Below the pieces are notes generated by a model, which was not told where the DNA came from, did not search any database, and saw only the letters and a list, made by a program, of their open reading frames with translations. Of a stretch of DNA of 64,000 nt, positions 3,566 to 16,788 are shown piece after piece; position 1 is the first letter of the stretch, and every line of letters starts with the position of its first letter. The translations under genes were made by a program, and so were the position numbers. Source of the stretch: a virus (lineage: Duplodnaviria; Caudoviricetes). The stretch is from the IMG/VR virus record IMGVR_UViG_3300014205_000019, positions 5,544 through 69,543 of that record; one strand, written 5' to 3'.

Positions 3566-3942
3566 TACCTCGTCCTCTCATTCACGAATGTCAGTTCCTT
3601 CTCGGCGTCAGCCTCAATGACCTCCTTCAACTCATCGAGCGTGTTAACGAATGTGATTCGTGCTGCCGACACAGCCCCTTCGTGTTGGGTGAAGGCGGCA
3701 ATGTTTAGTGCTGTCTTAATCGGATTGCCTTTCTTGTTGGCGTATCGAATAAGACCAACACACTCAGTAATGTCTCTGTTGTTGATGCCAATAGGCAGGG
3801 CATCCACCCTACCAATCACGGCGTGCCACCCATCCTTAAGGTAAGTACCGAAGGCGTTGCCGCACATGCAGGTAATCACACTGTCTGTGTAGACCTGCAA
3901 CTTCACAATGTCTTGACACTGTAGACAGAGCAGGAGTTTCAT
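3565..3942 (-). CDS. Hypothetical protein with N-terminal Zn ribbon
   Basis: CLQCQD...CMCGN. Confidence 0.7.
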   Translation of the reverse strand: MKLLLCLQCQDIVKLQVYTDSVITCMCGNAFGTYLKDGWHAVIGRVDALPIGINNRDITECVGLIRYANKKGNPIKTALNIAAFTQHEGAVSAARITFVNTLDELKEVIEADAEKELTFVNERTR

Positions 3943-4115
3943 TAGAATTTTCTAACCGCGATAAGTGCGAAAATCATACTAATCGAAATCAAAGCCAACA
4001 TCCCGTTGATAAGGACTTTCACAAAATCCAGTCCTGCAATGGCAATAATAACAATAGTGGTATTGTAAACCACAGAGAAGATGTTAATAGCCATTGCCAA
4101 AATCCACAGAATCAT
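3942..4115 (-). CDS. Small two-helix membrane protein (57 aa)
   Basis: Hand-translated MILWILAMAINIFSVV...LIAVRKF*; TAATG coupling. Confidence 0.6.
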   Translation of the reverse strand: MILWILAMAINIFSVVYNTTIVIIAIAGLDFVKVLINGMLALISISMIFALIAVRKF

Positions 4116-5302: not shown

Positions 5303-5776
5303 CTAGACCTCGCGCTGCACCATGATTACATGGCCTTCGTTCGGCTCATAGTACAACTCGTGAGCGATGGGTTCCTCATTGCGAGCAATGATGAGGTACA
5401 TCGTCTCCTTCAACTCATCGAGGCTCATGCTGTAGGTGGCACGGTCGATGAACTTCTTCAAGTCACGAAGGATGGCAGCCCGCTCGCTCCACATATTGGG
5501 TTTGTGGTCAGCAAGGAACTCGTATGCCTCTTCAAAATAGAGTTGGGTCAACTTGCCCTTCTCGTCGGCCAGCACCACAGACAGTGCCATACCCTCGTGG
5601 TCGTGTTCCATTAGGAACTGATAGGCCAACCTCTTCTTGGCATCAAGGTCGCCGTCAAGGGCTGAGTAGGTCACCCCATCACCATTGACGCAATCAATCT
5701 CGACGCGAATCATCTCAATCATGTTTCGACCCTTTCCATAGGTCATCATCAGGAGCACGGAAATAGTGCCCGACAT
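5303..5776 (-). CDS. Hypothetical protein
   Basis: 157-aa ORF, first gene after the promoter at 5937-5966; start uncertain. Confidence 0.6.
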   Translation of the reverse strand: MSGTISVLLMMTYGKGRNMIEMIRVEIDCVNGDGVTYSALDGDLDAKKRLAYQFLMEHDHEGMALSVVLADEKGKLTQLYFEEAYEFLADHKPNMWSERAAILRDLKKFIDRATYSMSLDELKETMYLIIARNEEPIAHELYYEPNEGHVIMVQREV

Positions 5777-5936
5777 ATCGGCGTTGTTCCCTCATTTTGG
5801 GTTAGCCCGCTCCCCATATCACCAGTGCCGTGTCCCTCATTTTGGAAGTAGCACCTTGAATAAGGTTATTGCCCTTAGTGCGTCACTCTAAGGTGTTATC
5901 GACGGCTATCTGGTGGCCTCGTGACCAGCCACCACT

Positions 5937-5966: not shown

Positions 5967-6355
5967 GCGCCCCGCCTGATGCCCACCCATGATGGTATTT
6001 GATAGTGCTAAGTGCTAACTATTAAATAGATATAACTATAAACTGCTATAAATAATCACACTCATAGCATAGTAGTATAGCCCTCAGTTAACTAGTCCAC
6101 ATTGGTATATAGATGCCACCCATGCCAGCCCCTTCGCCGCTTGGCCGCCTAGTATGGCCGCCCATTATAGTAACTATCTATCCAGCCGCCCACCATATAC
6201 GTTGTCTGGCCTCAAAGTCCGCGAACTCCAACGAATGGGGGCCAACACTACAACAAACACACTCTCTTAAGAATAGGCGGCAGCCTATTCTCTAGGCACT
6301 TACATATATTTACTTAATCTTAACTAAATATTTATATTGAATGGGTGCAAAACAC

Positions 6356-6384
6356 TTGACAAGTAGTCAAAAAGGTGTTATAAT
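6356..6384 (+). promoter_or_regulatory. Consensus sigma70 promoter
   Basis: TTGACA-N17-TATAAT with TG extension. Confidence 0.85.
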
Positions 6385-6435
6385 TTCTTTAACACCTAGA
6401 GGGGGCTTCTATATATAAGAGAGGGAGAGAAGAAG

Positions 6436-6591
6436 ATGAGTAAAGAAAGTGCTATTGAGGCTGCCGTCATTCATGCTCGCACACGCCGTCGCACTAGTGG
6501 CACTCAGTGGTTAGATGGGTCGGTCGACTTCGATATCTATTATGCTACGCAGTATGGCCTCGATGTATTAAAGAAGGATCGCTCTATATAG
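6436..6591 (+). CDS. Small hypothetical protein (51 aa)
   Basis: Hand-translated MSKESAIEAAVIHAR...; purine-rich SD; directly after the promoter. Confidence 0.45.
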   Translation: MSKESAIEAAVIHARTRRRTSGTQWLDGSVDFDIYYATQYGLDVLKKDRSI

Positions 6592-7762: not shown

Positions 7763-8357
7763 GCTTCCTGCTTTCCTGCTCCATGTTGTGCGCCACAGCC
7801 GGGTCGAGCCACTTATAAAGTAGGGCCATGCGGCGATAGATGGACAATTGCTTATGCCAATACGAATTTGTTAGCGGCGCAATCCACGGTACCTCGAAGT
7901 CGGCCACGAACTTCATCCAGTGGGCCTCGGTGCCGTGCGCCTGCTGCTCTGCTGTCAGTGTGGATTTGTTTCCCTCGACCCGCACCATAAGGAAGCCGCG
8001 ATCTTTAAGCACCTGATACTCGTCGGGTAGGCGCACATCATCTACGAAAAAGATACGGGTGCCGAAGCCGTATTGCCGGTCGAAGTCGGCCAACAGTTTG
8101 TCAACCAAGAACGACGGGTTGGCAGCGCGAAGTTCGTCGCCGTATCTTTGTAGGTCTAGGCGGTATTTATTCTTGGTATTAGGATTACGAAGTAGATTGA
8201 TATTAATGTTCTTGTCTAGGGCGTATTGAATCTTAATTGGTGCGGCAAAGGACAGCACGGGTGCACTATAGAAGCGGGCTAGTCCGTCGGCCAGTGTTGT
8301 CTTGCCAGCACCTGCGGGGCCGAAGAAGGCTACTGAGCGTGTAATCTTATACTCCAT
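7752..8357 (-). CDS. Deoxynucleoside monophosphate kinase
   Basis: P-loop GPAGAGKTT, SFAAPIK, LQRYGDELR, DDVRLPDE; ATG at 8357 after AAGGAGG. Confidence 0.8.
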   Translation of the reverse strand: MEYKITRSVAFFGPAGAGKTTLADGLARFYSAPVLSFAAPIKIQYALDKNININLLRNPNTKNKYRLDLQRYGDELRAANPSFLVDKLLADFDRQYGFGTRIFFVDDVRLPDEYQVLKDRGFLMVRVEGNKSTLTAEQQAHGTEAHWMKFVADFEVPWIAPLTNSYWHKQLSIYRRMALLYKWLDPAVAHNMEQESRKHDK

Positions 8358-8667
8358 TAAATGCCTCCTTCTTCGCTTCATAAGCATCGACCGTTTCACA
8401 GGCCGTATCGTCCGAATCACAGTATATCGCATCTTCATTATCGGGCCGAAGGCAAATGAAGCGCGGGCGGCGGAACTTACCAGTTTTAGTCAGTTCCTGA
8501 CACTCAACCTCAATGACCGTGCCAATCGGCAAGAATACGAACTCGGCTCGCTGTTCGTCGGTAAGGCCCACACTGACGCGGCCCATAGACGTTATGAGTG
8601 CGCCAACCTTACCCAAGTACCTGCCTTTGCCCGCCACGAGGCCTGTTACCACAATATCATAGTGCAT
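8347..8667 (-). CDS. Stand-alone DNA-ligase C-terminal OB-fold-like protein
   Basis: GKGRYLGKVGAL...VGLTDEQR...IGTVIEV...LTKTGKFRRPRF matches the ATP-dependent ligase OB pattern; no adenylation domain attached. Confidence 0.65.
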   Translation of the reverse strand: MHYDIVVTGLVAGKGRYLGKVGALITSMGRVSVGLTDEQRAEFVFLPIGTVIEVECQELTKTGKFRRPRFICLRPDNEDAIYCDSDDTACETVDAYEAKKEAFNGV

Positions 8668-8804
8668 TAGCGGCCCACGCCCATTTCCAACCCGCAGCGC
8701 CGACACAGGGCGAACATTAGATGCGGCTGCGTGGAAAATACAAAGTAGTCGTGACCCTCTGTCTTGCACTTTACTTCATATACGTTCGAATCAAAAACAG
8801 CCAT
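8667..8804 (-). CDS. Small Cys/His protein (45 aa)
   Basis: Hand-translated MAVFDSNVYEVKCKTEGH...CRRCG...; SD AAAGGAG. Confidence 0.5.
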   Translation of the reverse strand: MAVFDSNVYEVKCKTEGHDYFVFSTQPHLMFALCRRCGLEMGVGR

Positions 8805-8826
8805 TTACTTTTCTCCTTTAGGCTAC

Positions 8827-8860
8827 AAAACAAAAGTCCCCCAACCCGGAGGTGGGGGAC
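8827..8860 (-). terminator. Intrinsic terminator closing the tRNA array
   Basis: GTCCCCCA-cctccgggt-TGGGGGAC then TTTTGTTTT on the minus strand. Confidence 0.85.
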
Positions 8861-8890
8861 TGTGGCGGTAATAGTCGGAGCGTCCTCCGA

Positions 8891-8966
8891 TGGTAGCGGC
8901 TGGTGGATTCGAACCACCGTTCTCTTGCTAATGACACAAGCGAGACGACCACTTCTCTAAGCCGCG
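8891..8966 (-). tRNA. tRNA-Met(CAT), initiator-like C1/U72 mismatch but without three G:C pairs in the anticodon stem
   Basis: Cloverleaf, loop GT-CAT-TA, TTCGAAT, ACCA. Confidence 0.8.
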
Positions 8967-8967
8967 A

Positions 8968-9076
8968 TGGTAAGAGGCCGGTACCGTCTACAAATGACGG
9001 CCCGATGCTCCTAAGACTGCTATCGCGGATTCGAACCGCCTCGTCCCCCAACGGGACGCGAACCACTTCCTAGCAG
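8968..9076 (-). ncRNA. Composite RNA 1: compact tRNA-like domain (9017-9076), TCTT, then a CCA-ended hairpin (8968-9013)
   Basis: CTGCTA/TAGCAG stem, GCGG-TTCGAAT-CCGC arm, CGTCC/GGACG arm; then GCCGTC-ATTTGTA-GACGGT hairpin ending ACCA. Confidence 0.65.
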
Positions 9077-9077
9077 A

Positions 9078-9201
9078 TGGTGGGGAGTATCTCTCATATT
9101 CTTATGGGTAAACGAGATACCGCCCAAGACTGTGTTCGAGGATTCGAACCTCACTGCCGTCTTTACAGAGGCCGGTGTGCTGCCAATTACACTACTCACA
9201 G
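9078..9201 (-). ncRNA. Composite RNA 2: degenerate Tyr-like tRNA domain (9130-9201), TCTT, then a CCA-ended hairpin
   Basis: CTGTG/CACAG stem, D arm, CT-GTA-AA-like loop, GAGG-TTCGAAT-CCTC; then GTATCTC/GAGATAC stem ending ACCA. Confidence 0.65.
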
Positions 9202-9202
9202 A

Positions 9203-9277
9203 TGGTTCCAGCGACACGGAATCGAACCTGCTCAGACGGTTTAAAAGACCGCTATGCAACCTTTACATCACGCTGGA
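9203..9277 (-). tRNA. tRNA-Lys(TTT)
   Basis: Cloverleaf, CT-TTT-AA, ACCA. Confidence 0.92.
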
Positions 9278-9278
9278 A

Positions 9279-9361
9279 TGTTCCTTCACGGAGGGATCGA
9301 ACCTACCACTTCTTACTTTGTTTACCTTAAGTAAGCGTACTACCGTTGTACTAGCGAAAGA
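9279..9361 (-). tRNA. Atypical tRNA-like gene with 14-nt anticodon loop and 3' ACA
   Basis: Acceptor TCTTTCG/TGAAGGA, stem CTTAC/GTAAG around TTAAGGTAAACAAA, T-loop TTCGATC. Confidence 0.6.
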
Positions 9362-9435
9362 TGGTTCGGGATTAAGGATTCGAACCCTAACTAAGTGGTT
9401 CAGAGCCACTCGACCTACCTTTAGTCTAATCCCGA
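9362..9435 (-). tRNA. tRNA-Gln(CTG)
   Basis: Cloverleaf, CT-CTG-AA, ACCA. Confidence 0.93.
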
Positions 9436-9436
9436 A

Positions 9437-9513
9437 TGGCGACCCTGACGGGAGTTGAACCCGCTGCCTCTTCCTTGACAGGGAAGTGTGCATAACCGTT
9501 ACACTTCAAGGCC
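9437..9513 (-). tRNA. tRNA-Asp(GTC)
   Basis: Cloverleaf, CT-GTC-AA, GCCA. Confidence 0.93.
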
Positions 9514-9515
9514 AT

Positions 9516-9591
9516 TGGTACCACACGACAGAATCGAACTGTCAACCTTTCGCGTATCAGGCGAATGCTCTAACCGTTGCGCTAGTGTGGC
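9516..9591 (-). tRNA. tRNA-Ile(GAT)
   Basis: Cloverleaf, CT-GAT-AC, ACCA. Confidence 0.93.
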
Positions 9592-9592
9592 A

Positions 9593-9666
9593 TGGTGGGT
9601 TATCAGAGAATCGAACTCTGGTGGGCGTGGTAAGAGCACGCTAGTCTACCACTGACTTAATAACCC
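9593..9666 (-). tRNA. tRNA-Lys(CTT)
   Basis: Cloverleaf, CT-CTT-AC, ACCA. Confidence 0.93.
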
Positions 9667-9667
9667 G

Positions 9668-9755
9668 TGGTGCAAGGTGTAGGATTCGAACCTACGAAGC
9701 CTGTTAGAGCCTCGGTTTTACAGACCGCTTACTTTGTCCGCTTGTATAACCTTGC
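9668..9755 (-). tRNA. tRNA-Tyr(GTA)
   Basis: Long variable arm, CT-GTA-AA, ACCA. Confidence 0.93.
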
Positions 9756-9756
9756 G

Positions 9757-9831
9757 TGGTAGCCCCAACGGGACTCAAACCCGTTTCCAGAACTTGAAAG
9801 GTTCTTATCCTAATCCATAGACGATGGGGCC
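9757..9831 (-). tRNA. tRNA-Glu(TTC)
   Basis: Cloverleaf, CT-TTC-AA, ACCA. Confidence 0.92.
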
Positions 9832-10121
9832 ATGCGATTGAAAGTACGAACAGCGTGGCAGTTAGCACATACTATTTCGCACTTCATTAACTCATCCACC
9901 AGTTTGTCAAGTCCGACTCTGTGATAATGAGCAATGTTAAATTTCTTTTCACCTTTTACATGGTCGAACTGCATAGCGGCTTCGTGATATTGTACACCAC
10001 AATCCTTACAAGGCTTGTCTTTCCATGCTAAAACAACTTGGCGCAGTAGATTGGCCCGTTCGTATATCTGAGCCTTTCTCTTGTCCCTATTGTTTTGGTA
10101 ATAGGTCTGATTGTAATTCAT
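9810..10121 (-). CDS. HNH endonuclease 1 (homing-type)
   Basis: CKDCG...QFDH...CEIVCANCHAVRT; stop lies inside tRNA-Glu. Confidence 0.85.
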   Translation of the reverse strand: MNYNQTYYQNNRDKRKAQIYERANLLRQVVLAWKDKPCKDCGVQYHEAAMQFDHVKGEKKFNIAHYHRVGLDKLVDELMKCEIVCANCHAVRTFNRMAPSSMD

Positions 10122-10125
10122 CAGA

Positions 10126-10199
10126 TGGTACCCCTTGACAGAATCGAACTGCCGCTGGATGTGTGTAAAACATCTACACTACCATTATGTTAAAGGGGC
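10126..10199 (-). tRNA. tRNA-Val(TAC)
   Basis: Cloverleaf, TT-TAC-AC, ACCA. Confidence 0.92.
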
Positions 10200-10200
10200 T

Positions 10201-10233
10201 TGGCAGGAGGGACGGTGTTGGGCCCGCCCTCCT
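10201..10233 (-). ncRNA. 33-nt CCA-ended minihelix
   Basis: 7-bp AGGAGGG/CCCTCCT plus CGG/CCG, G discriminator, CCA; 1-nt spacers. Confidence 0.7.
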
Positions 10234-10234
10234 A

Positions 10235-10308
10235 TGGCTCCACATCAAGGAATCGAACCCTGATAGCAACGTTAACAGCGTCGCGTCTTACCGTTAGACG
10301 AATGTGGA
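10235..10308 (-). tRNA. tRNA-Asn(GTT)
   Basis: Cloverleaf, CT-GTT-AA, GCCA. Confidence 0.93.
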
Positions 10309-10309
10309 A

Positions 10310-10395
10310 TGGTACACCTAGAGGGACTCGAACCCCCATGAACTTTCGTTCGCTGCGTTCTAAGCGCAGTATGTCTGCCGTTTCATCATAGGTGC
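10310..10395 (-). tRNA. tRNA-Leu(TAG)
   Basis: Long variable arm, CT-TAG-AA, ACCA. Confidence 0.93.
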
Positions 10396-10396
10396 A

Positions 10397-10433
10397 TGGT
10401 GACCTGTCTACATTCTATTTCAAATGGTGGGCC
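10397..10433 (-). ncRNA. CCA-ended spacer RNA (weak local hairpin, strong long-range complement)
   Basis: GGCC/GGTC plus CATTT/GAATG stems, ACCA end, internal ACCA at 10425-10428. Confidence 0.45.
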
Positions 10434-10434
10434 G

Positions 10435-10509
10435 TGGTGCCGCCTGTGGGTATCGCGCCCACTACCTCTGGTTTTTCAGACCAGCGCTCTACTATTGTGC
10501 TAAGGCGGC
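10435..10509 (-). tRNA. tRNA-Phe(GAA) with non-canonical T-loop
   Basis: CT-GAA-AA; T-loop CGCGATA; D-loop without GG; ACCA. Confidence 0.88.
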
Positions 10510-10557
10510 TTAGATAGGTCAGGCAAATTCCGTGGAGTTCGCCCGACCCACTAACTT

Positions 10558-10583
10558 TGGAGCCAGAGGATTCGGATTCTGGC
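10558..10583 (-). ncRNA. 26-nt CCA-ended microhelix
   Basis: GCCAGA-ATCCGAATCC-TCTGGC, U discriminator, CCA. Confidence 0.7.
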
Positions 10584-10584
10584 A

Positions 10585-10672
10585 TGGTGTCAATGAGGGG
10601 ACTCGAACCCCTACGCGCCGTGGGCGCACTACGTTCTCAGCGTAGCCTGTTTGCCAATTACAGCACATCGAC
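10585..10672 (-). tRNA. tRNA-Leu(GAG)
   Basis: Long variable arm, CT-GAG-AA, ACCA. Confidence 0.93.
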
Positions 10673-10746
10673 TGGTCAGGGTAGGGAGAATCGAACTCCC
10701 GTCTTACCGTTCCAAGCGGCATACGTTACCACTACACTATACCCTG
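10673..10746 (-). tRNA. tRNA-Pro(TGG)
   Basis: Cloverleaf, CT-TGG-AA, ACCA. Confidence 0.93.
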
Positions 10747-10747
10747 A

Positions 10748-10804
10748 TGGTGCCGCCCTTGGGGATTTGCTATTCGCACCCCTACAGCCTTGGAGACGGG
10801 CGAC
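10748..10804 (-). ncRNA. 57-nt mini-tRNA without anticodon arm
   Basis: 7-bp GTCGCCC/GGGCGGC, tiny hairpin, GGGG/CCCC arm, ACCA. Confidence 0.7.
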
Positions 10805-10805
10805 A

Positions 10806-10891
10806 TGGCGGACTCTGTGAGATTCGAACTCACGGGGCTTGCACCCACTAGTTTAGCAAACTAGGTCGTTAAACCACTCCGACAAGAATCC
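10806..10891 (-). tRNA. tRNA-Ser(GCT)
   Basis: Long variable arm, TT-GCT-AA, GCCA. Confidence 0.93.
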
Positions 10892-10892
10892 G

Positions 10893-10927
10893 TGGTGGGC
10901 CTGCCTCATGTTGATTGCTGCAAGCCC
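10893..10927 (-). ncRNA. 35-nt CCA-ended minihelix
   Basis: GGGCTTGC/GCAGGCCC stem, ACCA, 1-nt spacers. Confidence 0.7.
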
Positions 10928-10928
10928 G

Positions 10929-10961
10929 TGGTGGCCCCTCCCGTATAAAGCGCGAGAGGCC
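10929..10961 (-). ncRNA. 33-nt CCA-ended minihelix
   Basis: GGCCTCTC/GAGGGGCC plus CG/CG, 7-nt loop CTTTATA, ACCA. Confidence 0.7.
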
Positions 10962-10962
10962 G

Positions 10963-11038
10963 TGGTGACGCATAGGGGATTCGAACCCCTGACTTCTACC
11001 TTGAGAGGGTAGCGTCCTAACCGCTAGACGAATGCGCC
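10963..11038 (-). tRNA. tRNA-Glu(CTC)
   Basis: Cloverleaf, CT-CTC-AA, ACCA. Confidence 0.93.
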
Positions 11039-11040
11039 AT

Positions 11041-11139
11041 AGAAGGAAGGGAGAGTGTGGATATTGTTTGGCAATATCGCGGCCCACCCTCTGCCTCTTC
11101 CCTCCGTGGGGGTTCCGAGTCCGCATCTCTTGGCTCGGT
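11041..11139 (-). ncRNA. Putative structured leader RNA (long irregular hairpin)
   Basis: GATATTG/CAATATC apical stem, purine/pyrimidine outer stem, 5' CCGAG/CTCGG hairpin; starts right after the promoter. Confidence 0.4.
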
Positions 11140-11145
11140 CTTACA

Positions 11146-11174
11146 ATTATAGCACAATGACAACTAGTTGTCAA
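11146..11174 (-). promoter_or_regulatory. Internal consensus sigma70 promoter with overlapping 16-bp palindrome
   Basis: TTGACA-N17-TATAAT with TG; TGACAACTAGTTGTCA at 11158-11173. Confidence 0.88.
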
Positions 11175-11194
11175 GTACCCTTGTAAGTTTATTT

Positions 11195-11269
11195 TGGTAC
11201 CCATATCAGGACTCGAACCTGACTTCTATCTTTAGGAGAGATAGGTAATATCCACTATACTATATGGGC
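11195..11269 (-). tRNA. tRNA-Arg(CCT)
   Basis: Cloverleaf, CT-CCT-AA, ACCA. Confidence 0.9.
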
Positions 11270-11484
11270 GGGTGACAGGAACACATACAATCAAAGTTTC
11301 TACACTGTTGGTGGAACCACGAACGTGTGGCTCTGTAGTCTAGGGCACACAATACTGAAAGAGTTGTGTTGGGGCCTAATTTATTCAGCATACTCTTTTG
11401 TGTGAGACTAAGAGAGTTTTCTACTCTACAATCTTTTGTGTGGCCCGACCCAACAGGTAGGTGACACGAGATGCAGTTTTCCAT
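11260..11484 (-). CDS. Cys-rich small protein, CxNF[DE]CxCxCH family member 1
   Basis: C-terminal QCRNFDCMCSCH; stop inside tRNA-Arg(CCT). Confidence 0.7.
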   Translation of the reverse strand: MENCISCHLPVGSGHTKDCRVENSLSLTQKSMLNKLGPNTTLSVLCALDYRATRSWFHQQCRNFDCMCSCHPPI

Positions 11485-11501
11485 AGGTATCCTTTCGAAT
11501 A

Positions 11502-11587
11502 TGGCGGAAAGGGCGAGAGTCGAACTCGCAAGGCTTACGCTCGTCCGTTTTCAAGACGGGTTCCGTTGCCAATCGGATAACCTTTCC
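11502..11587 (-). tRNA. tRNA-Ser(TGA)
   Basis: Long variable arm, CT-TGA-AA, GCCA. Confidence 0.93.
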
Positions 11588-11588
11588 G

Positions 11589-11630
11589 TGGTGGGGTACC
11601 CGGCGTCACTCGGGAGACTTTCTTTACCCC
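11589..11630 (-). ncRNA. 42-nt three-way mini-tRNA
   Basis: GGGGTA/TACCCC, AGA-AAG-TCT mini-hairpin, CCCG-8nt-CGGG arm, ACCA. Confidence 0.7.
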
Positions 11631-11631
11631 G

Positions 11632-11706
11632 TGGTGCCCTCGTTGGGAATCGAACCCAAACCTCAACCTTCGCAGGGTTGCATCGTATCCGTTGGACTAC
11701 GAGGAC
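11632..11706 (-). tRNA. tRNA-Arg(GCG)
   Basis: CAACC-CT-GCG-AA-GGTTG, ACCA. Confidence 0.9.
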
Positions 11707-11951
11707 TGTTCGTGACAACTACATTCACAATCAAAATTCTTACAAAAGTAGTGAGCAGTCCTGTAGTTTTCTGAAACATAATCAAAAATGTTTCCGGGAT
11801 GTGTACAAGCCTTACTAACTAATTTGTTAAGCCAATTGAAATCTTCTCCACTTTCAGGACAGTTTACGAAATGATAAAAGTTATGTCCTTTGTGTACTCT
11901 CTGTTTACAAACGTCGCAAACTACATAACCGTCGCTGGTTTCTCGTGGCAT
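11697..11951 (-). CDS. Cys-rich small protein, family member 2
   Basis: FCKNFDCECSCH; ATG at 11951; stop inside tRNA-Arg(GCG). Confidence 0.72.
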   Translation of the reverse strand: MPRETSDGYVVCDVCKQRVHKGHNFYHFVNCPESGEDFNWLNKLVSKACTHPGNIFDYVSENYRTAHYFCKNFDCECSCHEQSS

Positions 11952-11966
11952 GGTGTGACCTTTCAC
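11951..11966 (-). ncRNA. 16-nt CCA-ended tetraloop hairpin carrying the SD of the next ORF
   Basis: GTGA-AAGG-TCAC-ACCA; the last A is the A of the ATG. Confidence 0.5.
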
Positions 11967-11967
11967 A

Positions 11968-12043
11968 TGGAGCAGGATATGGGAATCGAACCCATTACCT
12001 CTTCTTTACCAAAGAAGTGTTCGTCCGTATGAACTTAACCTGC
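11968..12043 (-). tRNA. tRNA-Thr(GGT)
   Basis: TT-GGT-AA, TCCA. Confidence 0.9.
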
Positions 12044-12184
12044 ATTCTTCTTATGACACCGACAGCCGCAATCAAAATTTGCACACTTACTGTGGAACTC
12101 CTGAATTCGCGGGTCGGCCGACATAGTTGCATGGAAGCAATATCCGCTTTTAAGAGTGTTTAATTCTTCTCTTATAGTCGTCAT
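12035..12184 (-). CDS. Cys-rich small protein, family member 3 (49 aa, not in ORF track)
   Basis: Hand-translated MTTIREELNTLKSGYCFH...KCANFDCGCRCHKKNAG*; stop inside tRNA-Thr. Confidence 0.72.
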   Translation of the reverse strand: MTTIREELNTLKSGYCFHATMSADPRIQEFHSKCANFDCGCRCHKKNAG

Positions 12185-12327
12185 TATGATGCGTGACATT
12201 TACACTGACACTCGAAGTTTGCACACTTTCTGTGTAAGTCGGCAGCCACGCGTAAATGTTGGGCCGACTCTGCTGCATAGCAGTAACGTGATAGAACCTC
12301 ATTATACATATTAAATATGTTTCCCAT
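12184..12327 (-). CDS. Cys-rich small protein, family member 4 (47 aa)
   Basis: MGNIFNMY...YCY...KCANFECQCKCHAS*; TAATG coupling to member 3. Confidence 0.72.
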   Translation of the reverse strand: MGNIFNMYNEVLSRYCYAAESAQHLRVAADLHRKCANFECQCKCHAS

Positions 12328-12330
12328 AGT

Positions 12331-12344
12331 TGGTACCTTTCGGT
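12331..12344 (-). ncRNA. 14-nt CCA-ended GAAA-tetraloop hairpin carrying an SD
   Basis: ACC-GAAA-GGT-ACCA then ACT ATG. Confidence 0.45.
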
Positions 12345-12345
12345 A

Positions 12346-12420
12346 TGGTAGCCCCTGTAGGAATCGAACCCACATCACAACGTTCGAAGCGTCGCGTCGT
12401 ATCCATTAGACTAAGGGGCC
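12346..12420 (-). tRNA. tRNA-Arg(TCG)
   Basis: CT-TCG-AA, ACCA. Confidence 0.92.
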
Positions 12421-12429
12421 AAGGTGCCC

Positions 12430-12774
12430 TTAACGGGCTAGTTGGGCTGTGCTTAGAATGGCTAGAACGGTTTGCCACTCGGTATTACCATAAAGTGTAT
12501 CATCAATTAAAACTGCTGTGGCTGTATGTAAACCATCGAGGGTTTGGTCGTCCTCAAAAAATGGAGCATGTGATATGCCAGAACCCGATAGGTGAAATAG
12601 TAGTTTAGACATTTGTTGAGTATTACCACCCTCTACAATCACGAGGGTCTTGTGTTCTTTGGCCCATTTACGCGCCTTCTTGTCTTTGAGTAAGATTTCG
12701 GCTACGGCGTGTGCCGCCTGAATACCCTTTTGCATCGTTGAAAGATGCGAGTGAACAACTACATAGAGTTTCAA
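12430..12774 (-). CDS. Peptidyl-tRNA hydrolase 2 (PTH2)-like protein
   Basis: KLYVVVHSHLSTMQKGIQAAHAVAE resembles the PTH2 N-terminal motif (K-x-A-Q-x-x-H-A); later TLVIV and HTATAV segments; 114 aa. Confidence 0.7.
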   Translation of the reverse strand: MKLYVVVHSHLSTMQKGIQAAHAVAEILLKDKKARKWAKEHKTLVIVEGGNTQQMSKLLFHLSGSGISHAPFFEDDQTLDGLHTATAVLIDDTLYGNTEWQTVLAILSTAQLAR

Positions 12775-12857
12775 CTTCTATTCCTTATCTCGCAGGCACA
12801 AAAATTACACTCTCTTGCGTGTAAAAGGTGACCACATTTACAAAGTCGAACTAGCAT
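12771..12857 (-). CDS. 28-aa Zn-finger-like peptide
   Basis: Hand-translated MLVRLCKCGHLLHARECNFCACEIRNRS*; SD GAAAGGAG. Confidence 0.55.
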   Translation of the reverse strand: MLVRLCKCGHLLHARECNFCACEIRNRS

Positions 12858-12861
12858 AGTT

Positions 12862-12879
12862 TGGTGCTCCTTTCTAAGC
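12862..12879 (-). ncRNA. 18-nt CCA-ended hairpin carrying an SD
   Basis: GCTT-AGAAAG-GAGC-ACCA then AACT ATG. Confidence 0.45.
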
Positions 12880-12880
12880 A

Positions 12881-12965
12881 TGGTACAGCCTACGGGATTC
12901 GAACCCGTACTCCGTTAGGAACCAATTTTTAAGATTGGCGTGTCTACCGATTTCACCACGGCTGC
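12881..12965 (-). tRNA. tRNA-Leu(TAA)
   Basis: Long variable arm, CT-TAA-AA, ACCA. Confidence 0.93.
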
Positions 12966-12966
12966 A

Positions 12967-13010
12967 TGGTGGGACGCTCCGGGCAAATTCGGAGAAGCAC
13001 TCTTCATCCC
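12967..13010 (-). ncRNA. 44-nt three-way mini-tRNA
   Basis: GGGATG/CGTCCC, AAG-AGTG-CTT mini-hairpin, CTCCG-8nt-CGGAG arm, ACCA. Confidence 0.7.
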
Positions 13011-13011
13011 G

Positions 13012-13097
13012 TGGCGGACAGGGGGAGATTCGAACTCCCGACCCTTTCGGGTACTACTTTTCCAGAGGAGCGCACTAGACCACTATGCGACCTGTCC
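13012..13097 (-). tRNA. tRNA-Ser(GGA)
   Basis: Long variable arm, CT-GGA-AA, GCCA. Confidence 0.9.
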
Positions 13098-13448
13098 TTG
13101 TCTACGATTAAATGTTCTTATAGCATGACAATTAGCACATACTATCTCACATTTACTAATTTCTAAGAGAATTCTTTTCCAACTTATATTGGTGGTAATC
13201 CCTCTACTTATGTTGAATACTTTATCTTCTCCAATGTGATCAAACTGCATGACCGCATAATGGTATTGTACTCCACAATCAGTACAAGGAACTTCCTTTA
13301 ATTTCCTAATAAAATTACTTCTTTGGTCGTATCGTTCGAAGAAGTAATTTTTTCTACAAGATTTGCACCAAGATTGTTTTGTTCCTGTTTTCTTTTTGAA
13401 AAAGTTTATTTCTGGTAAGTGTTGGTCACATTTAGAACAGTAAAACAT
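13083..13448 (-). CDS. HNH endonuclease 2 with N-terminal Zn finger
   Basis: CSKC...WCKSC, CTDCG...QFDH...CEIVCANCHAIRT; ATG 13448 after AAAGGAG; stop inside tRNA-Ser. Confidence 0.85.
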   Translation of the reverse strand: MFYCSKCDQHLPEINFFKKKTGTKQSWCKSCRKNYFFERYDQRSNFIRKLKEVPCTDCGVQYHYAVMQFDHIGEDKVFNISRGITTNISWKRILLEISKCEIVCANCHAIRTFNRRQGQVA

Positions 13449-13463
13449 TTTGCTCCTTTGTGA

Positions 13464-13540
13464 TGGTACGGGTAGGGGGATTCGAACCCGCCACTCTTTC
13501 GCATATAAGGCGATGGCATTAACCGTCATGCTATACCCGC
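13464..13540 (-). tRNA. tRNA-Ile(TAT)
   Basis: TCGC-CT-TAT-AT-GCGA, ACCA. Confidence 0.85.
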
Positions 13541-13541
13541 G

Positions 13542-13600
13542 TGGGGCCGGTAGCAGGGACTCGCACCCTTGTATCTAGAACACTACTACTTTGTACCGGC
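13542..13600 (-). ncRNA. 59-nt mini-tRNA with acceptor and T arm, no anticodon arm
   Basis: GCCGGTA/TACCGGC, AGGG-TGCGAGT-CCCT, C discriminator, CCA. Confidence 0.7.
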
Positions 13601-13601
13601 A

Positions 13602-13676
13602 TGGTGGAGACTACGGGAATCGAACCCGTGATTCTTCTTTGCAAGAGAAGTGTGTTACCTCTAGCACTAAGTCCCC
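13602..13676 (-). tRNA. tRNA-Ala(TGC)
   Basis: CT-TGC-AA, G3:U70, ACCA. Confidence 0.94.
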
Positions 13677-13801
13677 GAAGCCCTACCAACCCGGAGGTAG
13701 TAGGGAAGAGTTTGTTGCCAACCTAACAGCAGGCCATTACGCCGCCATTTAAAGGATTCTGGTTTGCTGGCTCTCCCAATCCTTTTTCGATTGTAATTAC
13801 T

Positions 13802-14172
13802 GCAATGATGCTTAATAGCCCGGATTCTGTCAGGCCCGGTATGTAACGACGTAATTACTCGTCTCCCTGCTGGCCTGTACTGACATCTCCCTCACAACGG
13901 AATACCATCCCCGTCGTGGCCTGCGTCTAAAGCATGGCTGCCCCCTACCATATTTGGGGTTACTCGCCCGCTCCTGTACCCCGTTTCACTCGGCAAGCAA
14001 TAAGCCGATATCGTCACTGTTGGCAGGAACTCTTGCCCTTGCTAGTGGGCAGGCCGACCTTATTAGAGTCGAGCGGTTTTACATGGGTACCACCCCATGT
14101 GCGAGGCCGGAACTTGTTCCTCTATAATGTTTACCTTGCGGAACATTACAGCGTCAGAGTCCACATCATTAC
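13802..14172 (-). ncRNA. rnpB: RNase P RNA (bacterial-type ribozyme), about 371 nt
   Basis: P1 GTAATGATGT/GCATCATTGC; P2 CTGAC/GTCAG; P3 GTAATGTT/AACATTAT; P4 5' GAGGAACAAGTTCCGG (14107-14122) and 3' ACAGAATCCGGGCTA (13816-13830); GTGAAACG and CAAATA landmarks in the expected order. Confidence 0.8.
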
Positions 14173-14181
14173 TATTTGGTA

Positions 14182-14197
14182 TGGTGTCCTTGCGGAC
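14182..14197 (-). ncRNA. 16-nt CCA-ended GNRA hairpin just before the RNase P RNA
   Basis: GTCC-GCAA-GGAC-ACCA, followed by a second TACCA. Confidence 0.55.
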
Positions 14198-14198
14198 G

Positions 14199-14275
14199 TG
14201 GTGCTTGTCGTGGGATTCGAACCCACACTGTTACGTTTTTGAGACGTATCCCTCTGCCAATTGGAGTACACAAGC
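14199..14275 (-). tRNA. tRNA-Leu(CAA) with short variable loop
   Basis: TACGT-CT-CAA-AA-ACGTA, 5-nt variable region, ACCA. Confidence 0.85.
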
Positions 14276-14276
14276 A

Positions 14277-14352
14277 TGGTAGTCGCTACTGGATTCGAAC
14301 CAGTTTATCACGCTTATGAGACGTGCATCTTAACCCTGTTGATTCAGCGACC
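14277..14352 (-). tRNA. tRNA-Met(CAT), elongator (Ile2 not excluded)
   Basis: CT-CAT-AA, paired 1:72, ACCA. Confidence 0.85.
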
Positions 14353-14353
14353 G

Positions 14354-14423
14354 TGGTGCGAGTTGCTAGTCCGATTCGAACGGACGTATGTGCGACATAC
14401 CTACCTTGATTATGTAGCAACTC
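14354..14423 (-). ncRNA. 70-nt tRNA-like RNA with 9-bp acceptor and collapsed anticodon loop
   Basis: GAGTTGCTA/TAGCAACTC, GTATGT-CGC-ACATAC, GTCCG-TTCGAAT-CGGAC, GCACCA. Confidence 0.7.
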
Positions 14424-14521
14424 ATTCAATCTCTGTACTTTACTTCACCCACTCGACCAGCAGGTACCCTTAAATACTGGTTGTCTTAGCAGAGGACTGT
14501 ATTTCTGACCAGAGACTGAAT
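14424..14521 (-). ncRNA. Putative ~100-nt multibranch RNA without CCA
   Basis: 12-bp closing stem ATTCAGTCTCTG/CAGAGATTGAAT with inner ACCAG/CTGGT stem. Confidence 0.4.
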
Positions 14522-14525
14522 AGAG

Positions 14526-14553
14526 TGGCGAGAGTGTGCCCTCGTCAACTCGC
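14526..14553 (-). ncRNA. 28-nt CCA-ended microhelix
   Basis: GCGAGT/ACTCTC stem with one mismatch, GCCA end. Confidence 0.5.
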
Positions 14554-14554
14554 A

Positions 14555-14644
14555 TGGAAGATAGGGTGGGATTCGAACCCACGGAGCAAATCAATGCTCT
14601 CTCGTTTTCGAGACGAGTGCCGTAAGCCGCTTGGCTACCTATCC
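14555..14644 (-). tRNA. tRNA-Ser(CGA)
   Basis: Long variable arm, CT-CGA-AA, TCCA. Confidence 0.92.
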
Positions 14645-14645
14645 G

Positions 14646-14726
14646 TGGTTGGTGTCCTTGAAGAAGCCCGTCAGTAGATTATTTCTTCATTAGTCTACTG
14701 TTCTCACGTCACGGGACAATAAGGAC
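14646..14726 (-). ncRNA. 81-nt rod-like RNA ending ACCAACCA
   Basis: GTCCTT/AAGGAC, CCGT/ACGG and CAGTAGA/TCTACTG stems. Confidence 0.6.
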
Positions 14727-14727
14727 A

Positions 14728-14802
14728 TGGTTGAGGAAGTAGGATTCGAACCCACACCGTTTCGGTTCAAAGCCGAAAGACCTACCGTTAGTCTATTCCT
14801 CA
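14728..14802 (-). tRNA. tRNA-Gln(TTG)
   Basis: CT-TTG-AA, ACCA. Confidence 0.93.
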
Positions 14803-14803
14803 A

Positions 14804-14879
14804 TGGGGCGGAGTACGGGAATCGAACCCGCATTTACCGGGTCACAGCCGGTCGCTTGTACCAATAAGTTAACTCCACC
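14804..14879 (-). tRNA. tRNA-His(GTG)
   Basis: CT-GTG-AC, G-1:C73, CCA. Confidence 0.93.
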
Positions 14880-14880
14880 G

Positions 14881-14955
14881 TGGAGAGCCTAGCCAGAGTC
14901 GAACTGGCCTAAAGTAGTTTTGCAGACTACTGCCTTGCCGCTTGGCTATAGGCTC
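14881..14955 (-). tRNA. tRNA-Cys(GCA)
   Basis: CT-GCA-AA, U73, CCA. Confidence 0.93.
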
Positions 14956-14956
14956 A

Positions 14957-15002
14957 TGGTGCCCGGCCTACCTACGGTTCAATTACCGAATTGAGACTAG
15001 GC
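14957..15002 (-). ncRNA. 46-nt CCA-ended mini-tRNA
   Basis: GCCTAG/CCGGGC stem, CAATT-CGGT-AATTG arm, ACCA. Confidence 0.6.
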
Positions 15003-15003
15003 A

Positions 15004-15077
15004 TGGTGCAGCATGGGAGAATCGGACTCCCGCGTCAACGTTGGCAACGTTGCATTGTACCATTCAATTAATGCTGC
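15004..15077 (-). tRNA. tRNA-Gly(GCC)
   Basis: TT-GCC-AA, T-loop TCCGATT, ACCA. Confidence 0.9.
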
Positions 15078-15151
15078 TGGCACGGTGTGTAGGAATCGAA
15101 CCCACGTCTAGAGTTTTGGAGACACTAGTATTACCATTATACGAACACCGC
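15078..15151 (-). tRNA. tRNA-Trp(CCA)
   Basis: CT-CCA-AA, GCCA. Confidence 0.92.
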
Positions 15152-15152
15152 A

Positions 15153-15226
15153 TGGAGCATCATGCCGGTGCTGCCCCGGCGACCTCTGCTTGGAAGGCAG
15201 ATACGTTTCTGTTACGCCAATGATGC
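15153..15226 (-). tRNA. tRNA-Gly(TCC) with remodelled elbow
   Basis: CT-TCC-AA; T-loop GGCAGCA; D-loop without GG; U73 CCA. Confidence 0.85.
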
Positions 15227-15553
15227 TTGATATCTGTCGTATGTTCGTTGTCTGTGACAGTTAGAACAGACAAGTTCACACTTCTTGATTTCGTTTAATA
15301 TTCTTTCTTCACTGTAGGTTTGTCGTACCATAACCGAAATTTCTTTGAATTTCTTTTCATTTCCAAGATGGTCAAATTCCATAACATATGGGGGATATTT
15401 TATACCACAATCGGTACAGGGCTTATTTTTAAGACTATTTACAAACTCAAGTCTTTTCGTCCTGAGTTCCTTGTTCTTAAGGATATATTGTTCCTTATTT
15501 CTTTGGTAGTGTGTTAGTCCATCGACTTCACATTGAGAGCCTTCTTTCTTCAT
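15212..15553 (-). CDS. HNH endonuclease 3
   Basis: CTDCG...MEFDH...CELVCSNCHRQRT; own promoter; stop inside tRNA-Gly. Confidence 0.85.
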   Translation of the reverse strand: MKKEGSQCEVDGLTHYQRNKEQYILKNKELRTKRLEFVNSLKNKPCTDCGIKYPPYVMEFDHLGNEKKFKEISVMVRQTYSEERILNEIKKCELVCSNCHRQRTYDRYQASLA

Positions 15554-15561
15554 TACTTCCA

Positions 15562-15590
15562 ATTATATCATATTTTGGAAGTTTTGTCAA
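15562..15590 (-). promoter_or_regulatory. Consensus sigma70 promoter
   Basis: TTGACA-N17-TATAAT with TG; ATG 8 nt after the -10 box. Confidence 0.88.
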
Positions 15591-15711
15591 GTATGGAAGG
15601 CAGATTTCATACCATTAGAACAACGTCCCGTAACCTTACTTCTTACGCCTACGTGGGCCTATCGCGGCCTCCATGAGCGCCTTACCTATAATGTCTGCTG
15701 TGATGGTCTTT

Positions 15712-16020
15712 CTATCGGTCGTCGGACTCGTATTCTTCTTGCGAGTCGTCTTGCCTGTAGTATTCTTGCTTGCCATGCGTGAACCTCCGTGCCCTGCGAA
15801 CCGCCTCGGGAGGGGCTAGGGCCAGCACCTCGACAGGGAGGGCTTCCGTTCTCCCCTTCGGGGAGGGTGTCGCCTCCTGCTCGGTCAAATAACGGTGTCG
15901 CCCACAACTTATGCAGACGATTTTGTCCTCCGAGTGGATGCGCCCCATGCCCTGCCCGTATACAATATACCCGGCTTGGTATTCAAGGAACCCACCACAA
16001 TGTTCTCGGGGACACTTCAT
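15712..16020 (-). CDS. Zn-ribbon protein with acidic tail
   Basis: CPREHCGG...CISCGR. Confidence 0.6.
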   Translation of the reverse strand: MKCPREHCGGFLEYQAGYIVYGQGMGRIHSEDKIVCISCGRHRYLTEQEATPSPKGRTEALPVEVLALAPPEAVRRARRFTHGKQEYYRQDDSQEEYESDDR

Positions 16021-16106
16021 TACTTCTTCTTTCCGCCCTTCTTCTTAGGTGCGTCGTCTTTCTTCATCCAAGGTGGTAACTTCTTAGCCTTCTTCTTTAC
16101 TGGCAT
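16020..16106 (-). CDS. 28-aa Lys-rich peptide
   Basis: Hand-translated MPVKKKAKKLPPWMKKDDAPKKKGGKKK*; SD GGGGGTG; TAATG coupling. Confidence 0.6.
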   Translation of the reverse strand: MPVKKKAKKLPPWMKKDDAPKKKGGKKK

Positions 16107-16129
16107 TCATTCACCCCCGTGTTATTTAT

Positions 16130-16203
16130 TGGAGCACGCACCCGGAATTGGGCCGAGAATTGGATTTTACGAGAATCCCGTCTTACCGTTAGACTATGCG
16201 TGC
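16130..16203 (-). tRNA. tRNA-Thr(CGT)
   Basis: CT-CGT-AA; T-loop CCCAATT; TCCA. Confidence 0.88.
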
Positions 16204-16204
16204 A

Positions 16205-16278
16205 TGGAGCCGAAGCGGGGAATCGAACCCCGGTAGCCGCTTTACAAGAGCGGTGCAGTACCACTGTGCTACTCCGAC
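16205..16278 (-). tRNA. tRNA-Thr(TGT)
   Basis: CT-TGT-AA, TCCA. Confidence 0.93.
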
Positions 16279-16279
16279 A

Positions 16280-16354
16280 TGGCGCCCCGCAGAGGAATCG
16301 AACCCCTATGATAACTTTAGAAGAGTTATGTCCTGTCCGTTGAACGAGCGAGGC
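16280..16354 (-). tRNA. tRNA-Arg(TCT)
   Basis: CT-TCT-AA, GCCA. Confidence 0.93.
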
Positions 16355-16461
16355 GTGCCCGTTTACCAATGGCCGGGAGAATTGTAGTAATCATCGAGCG
16401 CCCACGTACTTGCATACCATAGCGCTTCTTGAATCTCTTCTTCTCTCGGTCGGTACTTTTA

Positions 16462-16490
16462 ATTATACCACTTTCTTCATTCATTGTCAA
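16462..16490 (-). promoter_or_regulatory. Consensus sigma70 promoter at the head of the tRNA array
   Basis: TTGACA-N17-TATAAT with TG. Confidence 0.88.
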
Positions 16491-16493
16491 TAC

Positions 16494-16685
16494 CTATCCT
16501 ATGATTTCCTCAACATTTTTCAATGTAGGAAGTGTTATACCACCTACCCACTTCATCAATTCTAGGTTGTTTCGCTGGTTGATATAGGCCACGCCAAATA
16601 GAAGCGCCGCTTCAAGCGCATCCTGATATGAAGAACCTGTTAGACGGGCCAGCGTTTCCACCAGCAAATCCACAGTAATATCCAT
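16494..16685 (-). CDS. Hypothetical protein (63 aa)
   Basis: MDITVDLLVETLARL...; downstream of the leftward promoter. Confidence 0.5.
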   Translation of the reverse strand: MDITVDLLVETLARLTGSSYQDALEAALLFGVAYINQRNNLELMKWVGGITLPTLKNVEEIIG

Positions 16686-16718
16686 ATGAACTCTCTTGTG
16701 AATTGTTTTCTTATCCAC

Positions 16719-16747
16719 TTGACAAACACCGCCTTTCGTGGTATGAT
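16719..16747 (+). promoter_or_regulatory. Rightward sigma70 promoter (packaging/virion module)
   Basis: TTGACA-N17-TATGAT with TG. Confidence 0.8.
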
Positions 16748-16774
16748 TATACCATATCGTACTTTCTTTGTCAA
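16746..16774 (-). promoter_or_regulatory. Leftward sigma70 promoter overlapping the rightward one
   Basis: TTGACA-N17-TATAAT with TG. Confidence 0.85.
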
Positions 16775-16788
16775 GTGAAAGGAACAAA

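Follow-up and report, generated by a model that had tools for sequence, protein, structure and literature searches.

The 234 bases that stand just before the last gene of a phage tRNA array seem better read as four adjacent operon slots (TL2, HP2, TL1 and HP1, that is, two tRNA-like domains each followed by a hairpin) than as two bipartite RNAs. We give about an even chance to a reading in which RNase P cuts four separate RNAs out of this stretch, two of them being non-decoding mimics of a tRNA 'top half' that carry no CCA. Phage tRNA arrays are usually read as codon supply, and the present one also holds many non-decoding RNAs shaped like the end of a tRNA. TL1 and TL2 are the only places in this array where a tRNA shape is found with its CCA stripped and with the top half that matters for processing intact.

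The array belongs to virus record IMGVR_UViG_3300014205_000019 (69,543 bases, direct terminal repeats, rated complete), of which bases 5544-69543 were analysed; this stretch of 64,000 nucleotides is referred to as the window, and positions given without a contig name are positions in it. On the minus strand, from 16354 down to 8891, the array contains 38 tRNA genes that cover all amino acids and that all (38/38) encode their CCA. Neighbours are separated by 0-2 nt, most commonly by a single U. The two tRNA-like domains with their hairpins, here called units 2 and 1 in the order in which they occur on this strand, sit just before tRNA-Met, the last tRNA of the array. Starting from homologues of the terminase, three contigs were reached that share the gene order and bear an array of similar kind, namely L004 (67% identity), L005 (65%) and L007 (48%).

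Near-consensus promoters of the sigma-70 type (TTGACA, about 17 nt, TATAAT) are found at about 11150-11190 (minus strand) and 16440-16490 (minus strand), the former inside the array and the latter upstream of it, and small ORFs (HNH-like, Cys-rich) are embedded between the tRNA genes. Downstream of terminase/portal-like genes, a single ORF of 3277 aa (22975-32808, plus strand) has a counterpart of 3240-3350 aa in L005 and L007. Between tRNA-Ser(CGA) and tRNA-Met lies a structured RNA of ~200 nt (14354-14553, minus strand) with a canonical T arm, a closing helix of at least 8 bp and an ACCA end. This RNA is also present in L004 (about 6340-6540) and L005 (about 5615-5810), its T arm and ..CGC-ACCA end being kept in the three phages; it is not called as a tmRNA, and its match to sX4 is only weak. 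The tRNA-Lys(UUU) is atypical across the phage group, with an 8-nt T loop in the window and, in L007 (about 3907-3983, minus strand), a T arm that does not have the usual T-loop sequence and was missed by ARAGORN. The terminal tRNA-Met(CAU) has a U at position 37 and is well conserved in L004 and L005.

The anatomy of the two units and their slot context are established (Table 1). Unit 2 (9201..9078, minus strand, 124 nt) starts with CUG and carries a T arm, 7 nt ending in CAG, the tetranucleotide UCUU and a hairpin ending in ACCA. Unit 1 (9076..8968, minus strand, 109 nt) likewise starts with CUG and has an identical T loop, with CAG and UCUU following at the same 7-nt spacing. The UCUU consists of U at 9129 and CUU at 9128..9126 in unit 2, and lies at 9016..9013 in unit 1. 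In all of this the original prediction was accurate: it had both units starting with CTG, closing their tRNA-like domains with CAG, carrying TCTT exactly where NCCA should be, and continuing into unrelated hairpins that end in ACCA, for total lengths of 109 and 124 nt.

Table 1. Features of the 3' end of the tRNA array and the RNase P RNA-like gene (positions in the window)
Feature	Position	Strand	Basis or remarks
Degenerate 'tRNA-Leu(UAA)'	9278-9360	-	ARAGORN only; weak T stem; A-ACA-U instead of NCCA; abuts tRNA-Lys(UUU)
tRNA-Lys(UUU), upstream neighbour of TL2	9203..9277	-	Rfam 33.3 bits; 8-nt T loop; encoded ACCA
U spacer (1 nt) between tRNA-Lys(UUU) and TL2	9202	-	
TL2, tRNA-like domain of unit 2, positions 1-73	9129..9201	-	Rfam alignment, arm conservation
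CUU in the CCA place (positions 74-76) of TL2, also 5' leader (-3 to -1) of HP2	9126..9128	-	Sequence and T-arm census
HP2, 48-nt hairpin	9078..9125	-	Folding; U at -1, G at +1
U spacer (1 nt) between HP2 and TL1, as between most array slots	9077	-	
TL1, reduced tRNA-like domain of unit 1	9016..9076	-	Discriminator U at 9016
CUU in the CCA place of TL1, also 5' leader of HP1	9013..9015	-	Sequence and T-arm census
HP1, 45-nt hairpin	8968..9012	-	Folding; U at -1, A at +1
tRNA-Met(CAU), downstream neighbour, last gene of the array	8891..8966	-	1:72 mismatch (initiator-like)
Terminator-like hairpin after the terminal tRNA-Met	about 8863..8832	-	
RNase P RNA-like gene inside the array	13811..14166	-	Rfam RNaseP_bact_b, 48.9 bits, E 3e-11, full-length; below gathering score 97

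The pattern formed by the T loop, seven nucleotides ending in CAG, and UCUU (T loop-N7-CAG-UCUU) has two matches in the window and two in the whole 69.5-kb genome, compared with 0.00 in 100 shuffles. TL1 and TL2 have in common the initial CUG, AG at positions 6-7, the T loop, GA after the T stem, CAG and UCUU, with different bases in between. As far as sequence comparison goes, the sharing of this pattern argues for constraint, or for common descent combined with selection, and against the junction being noise. Because the two domains agree at set positions and differ between them, they fit selected paralogues better than the products of neutral decay.

How exceptional the missing CCA is can be seen from a census of all T-arm motifs in this array and in those of L004, L005 and L007, for each of which bases 73-76 were listed. 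The census sets aside two CCA-ended elements in shifted register (the 200-nt RNA mentioned above and a 59-nt unit at 13600..13542) as well as some motif matches that arose by chance within ORFs or tRNA arms. In the four arrays no regular tRNA is without CCA at 74-76; TL1 and TL2 have CUU there, after a U at 73. The only T-arm units of the four arrays that do not have CCA there are TL1, TL2, the degenerate unit at 9360..9278 (A-ACA) and a tRNA-like gene, here called X, in each of L004 and L005, in which the CCA arrives 3 nt late.

TL2 has a D arm, an anticodon-like arm and a canonical T arm, and is closed by an acceptor helix of 5 bp (CUGUG/CACAG) with two mismatches at its inner end and a discriminator U. 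The T stem comprises 5 bp including a U-G pair, and the T loop is canonical. The original prediction described a broken Tyr-like anticodon stem, and this is indeed what is found: instead of a 7-nt loop on a 5-bp stem, the arm has a G-A mismatch and a 9-nt loop holding GUA. The alignment of TL2 to the Rfam tRNA model RF00005 is full-length and scores 22.6 bits (E 0.034), below the gathering score of 29, and TL2 is not called by ARAGORN. Nearest-neighbour energies put its cloverleaf at -13.8 kcal/mol, 7.4 kcal/mol above the minimum free energy structure (-21.2 kcal/mol).

We consider it very improbable that TL2 takes part in decoding with its expanded loop, whether by reading codons of four or five bases or as a Tyr isoacceptor, after maturation through RNase Z and host CCA addition. 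The 9-nt loop does contain U-GUA-A in the canonical arrangement, which speaks for such a role. Yet the domain lies below the tRNA threshold, with its two acceptor mismatches and the G-A mismatch in the anticodon stem, and the anticodon is not kept among the units that occupy the same slot in related phages. TL1, moreover, has no anticodon loop and carries the same junction all the same. Bacterial tRNA-Tyr normally has a long variable arm; the array's own tRNA-Tyr is 88 nt long, and TL2 has no such arm.

In TL1 the acceptor helix comprises 6 bp, the D-region is a single strand of 12 nt that contains GG, the middle hairpin has 6 bp and a loop of 5 nt, and the T arm has 4 bp and a canonical T loop. 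The reduction of the D arm that had been noted from the sequence goes as far as the absence of the D stem. At the place of the anticodon loop there is a 5-nt loop on a 6-bp stem, again not the 7-nt loop on a 5-bp stem. TL1 did not match the Rfam tRNA model even at E values up to 10 and is not called by ARAGORN; its tRNA-like fold (-22.6 kcal/mol) competes with a rod-like minimum free energy structure (-26.0 kcal/mol), the rod being preferred by 3.4 kcal/mol. Among the 140 array tRNAs its best match is the adjoining tRNA-Met, by way of the D-loop region, and no counterpart of TL1 was found in the arrays of the related phages. TL1 seems to be a cut-down paralogue of TL2. With no usable anticodon arm, neither of the two is a normal decoder.

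The hairpins that follow are of a more familiar kind. HP2 is a helix of 12 stacked positions (with one C-C mismatch and one G-U pair) with a 20-nt loop and a 3' ACCA overhang, and its stability exceeds that of shuffled sequences (z = -3.4; 0/200 fold as well). In HP1 an internal loop separates 5-6 bp next to the ends from a further 10 bp, interrupted by one bulge, that carry a 7-nt loop; it has about 16 bp in all and a 3' ACCA overhang (z = -2.7; 1/200 as stable). When every non-tRNA unit of the array ending in CCA was folded, at least 17 further slots (within 8968-15002, minus strand) were found to hold hairpins or small branched RNAs of 14 to 200 nt ending in NCCA, many of them between 14 and 81 nt long. 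Members of this class have an NCCA overhang of 4 nt, their first base is paired to the one that precedes this overhang, and U or C stands at position -1, each of the 17 units beginning one base (U or C) after the preceding CCA. HP1 and HP2 have the same pairing of the 5' base and the same NCCA overhang, lie 0-1 nt from their neighbours, and have no sequence or shape in common beyond these class features. They are ordinary slot fillers, and the unusual part is what stands in front of them.

GAAAGG occurs in four tiny hairpins of the array, each placed just ahead of a small ORF's start codon; one of these hairpins, at about 11500, has ACC rather than ACCA at its end and is outside the list of 17 units. 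Derivations of HP2 from tRNA-Ala and of HP1 from tRNA-Lys(CUU) were considered and set aside, the alignments being gappy and inconsistent between phages, and an Ala-type identity of the two hairpins was rejected, as neither has G3-U70.

Two readings of the units had been offered at the outset, one RNA with a displaced CCA or a CCA-less tRNA-like RNA with an armless, CCA-bearing partner, and it is the second that fits the context best. The first, in which each unit is a single stable RNA (124 or 109 nt) made of a tRNA-like 5' handle and a hairpin with the sole, 'displaced' CCA, is unlikely in our estimation. In such a molecule the hairpin would join its own ends and so bring ACCA out within a few nucleotides of where the tRNA-like acceptor helix finishes; there it may serve RNase P, enzymes acting on CCA ends or a synthetase. 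This arrangement would agree with a junction that is identical in two otherwise different units and leaves 4 nt between acceptor helix and hairpin base, and with the last U of UCUU, which can pair with A73 of the hairpin and might suppress the RNase P cut. The X genes of L004 and L005 also have a displaced CCA, by 3 nt and with a 5-nt bulge, and the TL domains are, aside from the aberrant exceptions of the census, the only T-arm units that have no CCA of their own. However, similar NCCA hairpins stand alone after normal, CCA-ended tRNAs in at least 17 other places, which argues that HP1 and HP2 are self-standing slot units and not 3' domains peculiar to two RNAs. Many of these hairpins also combine U at -1 with A73, and nothing marks HP1 and HP2 as uncleavable. 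Their likeness to one another in class features alone and the failure of relatives to keep the junction speak against a single RNA as well.

The related arrays place TL2 in a wider context. In L004 and L005 the array ends with Gln(CUG), Lys(UUU), X, Y and Met. X scores 53.7 bits as a tRNA-like gene in L005 and 52.1 in L004, and has an odd acceptor, in which an A-rich bulge of 5 nt on the 3' side separates the inner from the outer helix. Y (L004 1983-2110 and L005 1193-1294, both minus strand) is a multi-hairpin RNA of 108-128 nt between X and the last tRNA-Met that ends in AUGCUU, not CCA, in both phages and that is strongly structured in L004 (z = -3.65). Close to the 3' end of the array, a spacer of 1 nt separates tRNA-Lys(UUU) from TL2 just as it does from X, the tRNA arms are kept, and TL2 aligns with X. 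Their stems were compared by hand-set segments, the MAFFT alignment being structurally unusable; compensatory changes preserve the pairing of the D, anticodon and T stems, and the anticodon loops of the same-slot units all differ (UAA and GUU in the X units, the 9-nt loop with GUA in TL2). That the arms appear to be under selection and the anticodon does not suggests that X and TL2 are non-decoding tRNA mimics.

This homology in position and the conservation of structure are established; the relation between the genes themselves is a matter of more modest confidence. TL2 does not have the X-type acceptor, a 7-nt 3' strand being followed directly by UCUU with neither A-rich bulge nor displaced CCA, and in a ranking of 140 tRNAs by similarity to TL2 the X genes of L004 and L005 come only 4th-5th, behind tRNA-Leu(CAA). 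We take TL2 to be the orthologue of X mainly on account of its position, with modest support from sequence. The UCUU junction was looked for in the arrays of L004, L005 and L007 and is absent from all three, being seen in one genome only, an outcome that the original prediction had itself named beforehand among its refuting results. The 'defined architecture' that it proposed is weakened by this.

It is possible, if on the doubtful side, that the units represent tRNA genes in decay, and scars left by deletions, at a fast-evolving 3' end of the array, that their junction was inherited from a duplication, and that they at most keep the precursor cleavable. The low score of TL2 (22.6 bits) beside those of the same-slot units of L005 and L004 (53.7 and 52.1), its anticodon loop enlarged by 2 nt, its stem mismatch and its shortened 3' acceptor strand would all be expected of such a gene. 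The same can be said of TL1, with its missing D stem and its resemblance to the adjoining tRNA-Met in the D-loop region, and the degenerate, CCA-less 'tRNA-Leu(UAA)' and the odd tRNA-Lys lie nearby. Gene order and content between tRNA-Lys and tRNA-Met, furthermore, differ in all four phages. Decay does not sit well, on the other hand, with the retention of 234 bases by a compact phage of 69.5 kb, nor with T loops that are perfect and terminal acceptor pairs and junctions that are identical while the intervening bases differ, which is not expected of neutral decay following a duplication. The compensatory changes in the stems of X and TL2, and the full pairing that both hairpins keep up to NCCA, also weigh against it.

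Searches beyond these three contigs added little. By megablast, 8000-17000 matched none of 50,697 phage records, and single-protein locus searches of IMG/VR with the terminase and with the kinase-like protein returned no relatives. A pattern for the terminal tRNA-Met found nothing in IMG/VR, and its sole match in JGI metagenomes was a further contig of the L005 phage. L008, L014 and L015, whose terminases are 40-58% identical, have no tRNA array at the site, contigs L009 and L010 do not include the upstream region, and the contigs of the kinase relatives are too short to reach the array. The closest relative, with 97% terminase identity (run SRR33270618), is represented by a 2.7-kb contig only.

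The junction pattern had one match in IMG/VR, on an unrelated contig and with a different structure. On that contig (L001, IMGVR_UViG_3300028833_003300, from an unrelated phage), at about 1960-2050 on the minus strand, a 3' tRNA half lies ~20 nt upstream of the matching 5' half. The acceptor strands of the two halves are complementary, so that this could be a permuted or split tRNA gene, or the scar of an att site. For units 1 and 2 themselves, a split or permuted tRNA was considered and dropped, as the ends do not pair across parts.

The reading as four slots implies a processing route that can be outlined from the features at hand. The operon would be transcribed as a long precursor, from the promoter near 11,150-11,190 to the terminator-like hairpin after the last tRNA, and RNase P would cut it at every slot boundary, the enzyme being either the phage RNase P RNA-like molecule with a host protein or the host's own enzyme. 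The candidate RNA gene in the array scores below gathering; in L007, the RNA at 1640-1999 on the minus strand is clearly an RNase P RNA of class A, its 207 bits exceeding the gathering score. The genome of the window phage gave no match to the families of the CCA-adding enzyme, RnpA and RNase Z, so that any trimming and CCA addition would be the host's. Uridines downstream favour RNase Z, a point that is given no weight here. Routes of trimming and CCA addition have been described for CCA-less bacterial tRNAs (PMC8549757, PMC10424219).

RNase P pairs with the 3' RCC of its substrates and acts efficiently on minihelices (PMC11221534); one report describes a pyrimidine (U or C) at -1 as favouring cleavage (PMC3874170). 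With 12 stacked positions, HP2 is as long as the stack of acceptor and T stem by which RNase P gauges its substrates. As HP1 and HP2 bear these marks of RNase P substrates, we infer cuts between UCUU and each hairpin, placed between the last U and the first hairpin base. Such cuts would free TL1 and TL2 with a 3' U-CUU tail instead of NCCA, while leaving them what processing enzymes are expected to read, namely the acceptor helix, the T arm and the elbow. The U at -1 is able to pair with A73 and could shift or weaken RNase P cleavage at the hairpins, which counts against the reading as four RNAs. The same holds for the competing folds of TL1 and TL2, which are lower in energy than the tRNA-like ones, for the sub-threshold score of the RNase P RNA-like gene, for the modest sequence support for TL2 as orthologue of X, and for the occurrence of the junction in a single genome.

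Under the four-slot reading, TL2 would be the local version of the aberrant same-slot tRNA of related phages and TL1 a further reduced paralogue, and both RNAs would stay uncharged or depend on trimming and CCA addition by the host. Their role might then be that of tRNA-shaped punctuation, or of competitors for host tRNA-end enzymes or for nucleases directed against tRNAs, rather than one in translation, a suggestion that we make weakly. A more elaborate proposal, drawn by analogy and in our view quite improbable, is that the pairing of domain and hairpin is a designed module, the phage equivalent of the tRNA-linked hairpin RNAs of a herpesvirus, in which the CCA-less handle recruits tRNA-end enzymes (RNase P, RNase Z, the CCA-adding enzyme) and presents or releases the hairpin CCA, the products acting as decoys against host defences that hit acceptor ends or anticodon loops.

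Should these RNAs prove to be produced and stable, phages would be seen to keep tRNA mimics for uses beyond decoding, such as control of processing or decoys against tRNA-directed defences, and the locus would be a simple natural example in which to study how a dense precursor is shared out among RNase P, RNase Z and the CCA-adding enzyme. If the genes are instead decaying, the locus would show how tRNA genes of an array shrink into minihelices.

Stable RNAs other than tRNAs are familiar from phage tRNA clusters, such as species 1 and 2 of T4 (rnaC/rnaD) and the stable RNAs of T5. The resemblance lies in small structured RNAs that are co-transcribed and co-processed with phage tRNAs, as is predicted here; an Rfam search of the region returned no family of this kind. 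Phage T4 also has CCA-less tRNA genes, whose Pro, Ser and Ile precursors need host RNase BN/Z and CCA addition. In Bacillus and Streptococcus, CCA-less tRNAs are cut by RNase Z (PMC8549757, PMC10424219). Like all of these, TL1 and TL2 are tRNA-shaped units of a multi-gene precursor with other bases at the place of CCA, and their maturation would need a cut or trimming at the discriminator and then CCA addition. They differ in that they cannot decode, in that they are exceptions in an array that otherwise encodes CCA throughout, and in that the trailer is a structured RNA and not a plain spacer.

The hairpins, for their part, resemble the synthetic acceptor/T-stem minihelices that serve as substrates of RNase P, the CCA-adding enzyme and synthetases (PMC11221534), having 12 stacked positions in HP2 and about 16 in HP1; both end in an ACCA overhang of 4 nt, follow a pyrimidine at -1 and occupy a tRNA slot. 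Unlike the synthetic molecules they are natural genes, and putative substrates only; the loop of HP2 measures 20 nt, HP1 contains an internal loop and a tip resembling an anticodon arm, and neither has the G3-U70 mark of alanine.

A tRNA-like module joined to a long stem is also known from YrlA and other bacterial Y RNAs, some of them phage-encoded (PMC4201824). Both there and here a mimic of the T arm and acceptor is joined to a helical domain, but the YrlA module is inserted in a stem formed by the ends of the RNA, whereas the TL domains are self-closed and the hairpin is separate. An assignment to YrlA or tmRNA was dropped, there being no match to RF02553 in 8800-9400 at E up to 10 and no tmRNA called by ARAGORN, and the topology being wrong.

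The closest architectural analogue, with no homology implied, is provided by the TMERs of murine gammaherpesvirus 68, in which a tRNA-like element is followed by one or two stem-loops that are separated from it by tRNase Z (PMC4045068). In both cases a viral tRNA-like 5' module that is not charged stands directly before a hairpin, and enzymes of tRNA processing are the likely separators; the order of parts is the same here by sequence. The TMERs differ from units 1 and 2 in belonging to a eukaryotic virus, in being driven by RNA polymerase III promoters, and in that their hairpins are pre-miRNAs without CCA.
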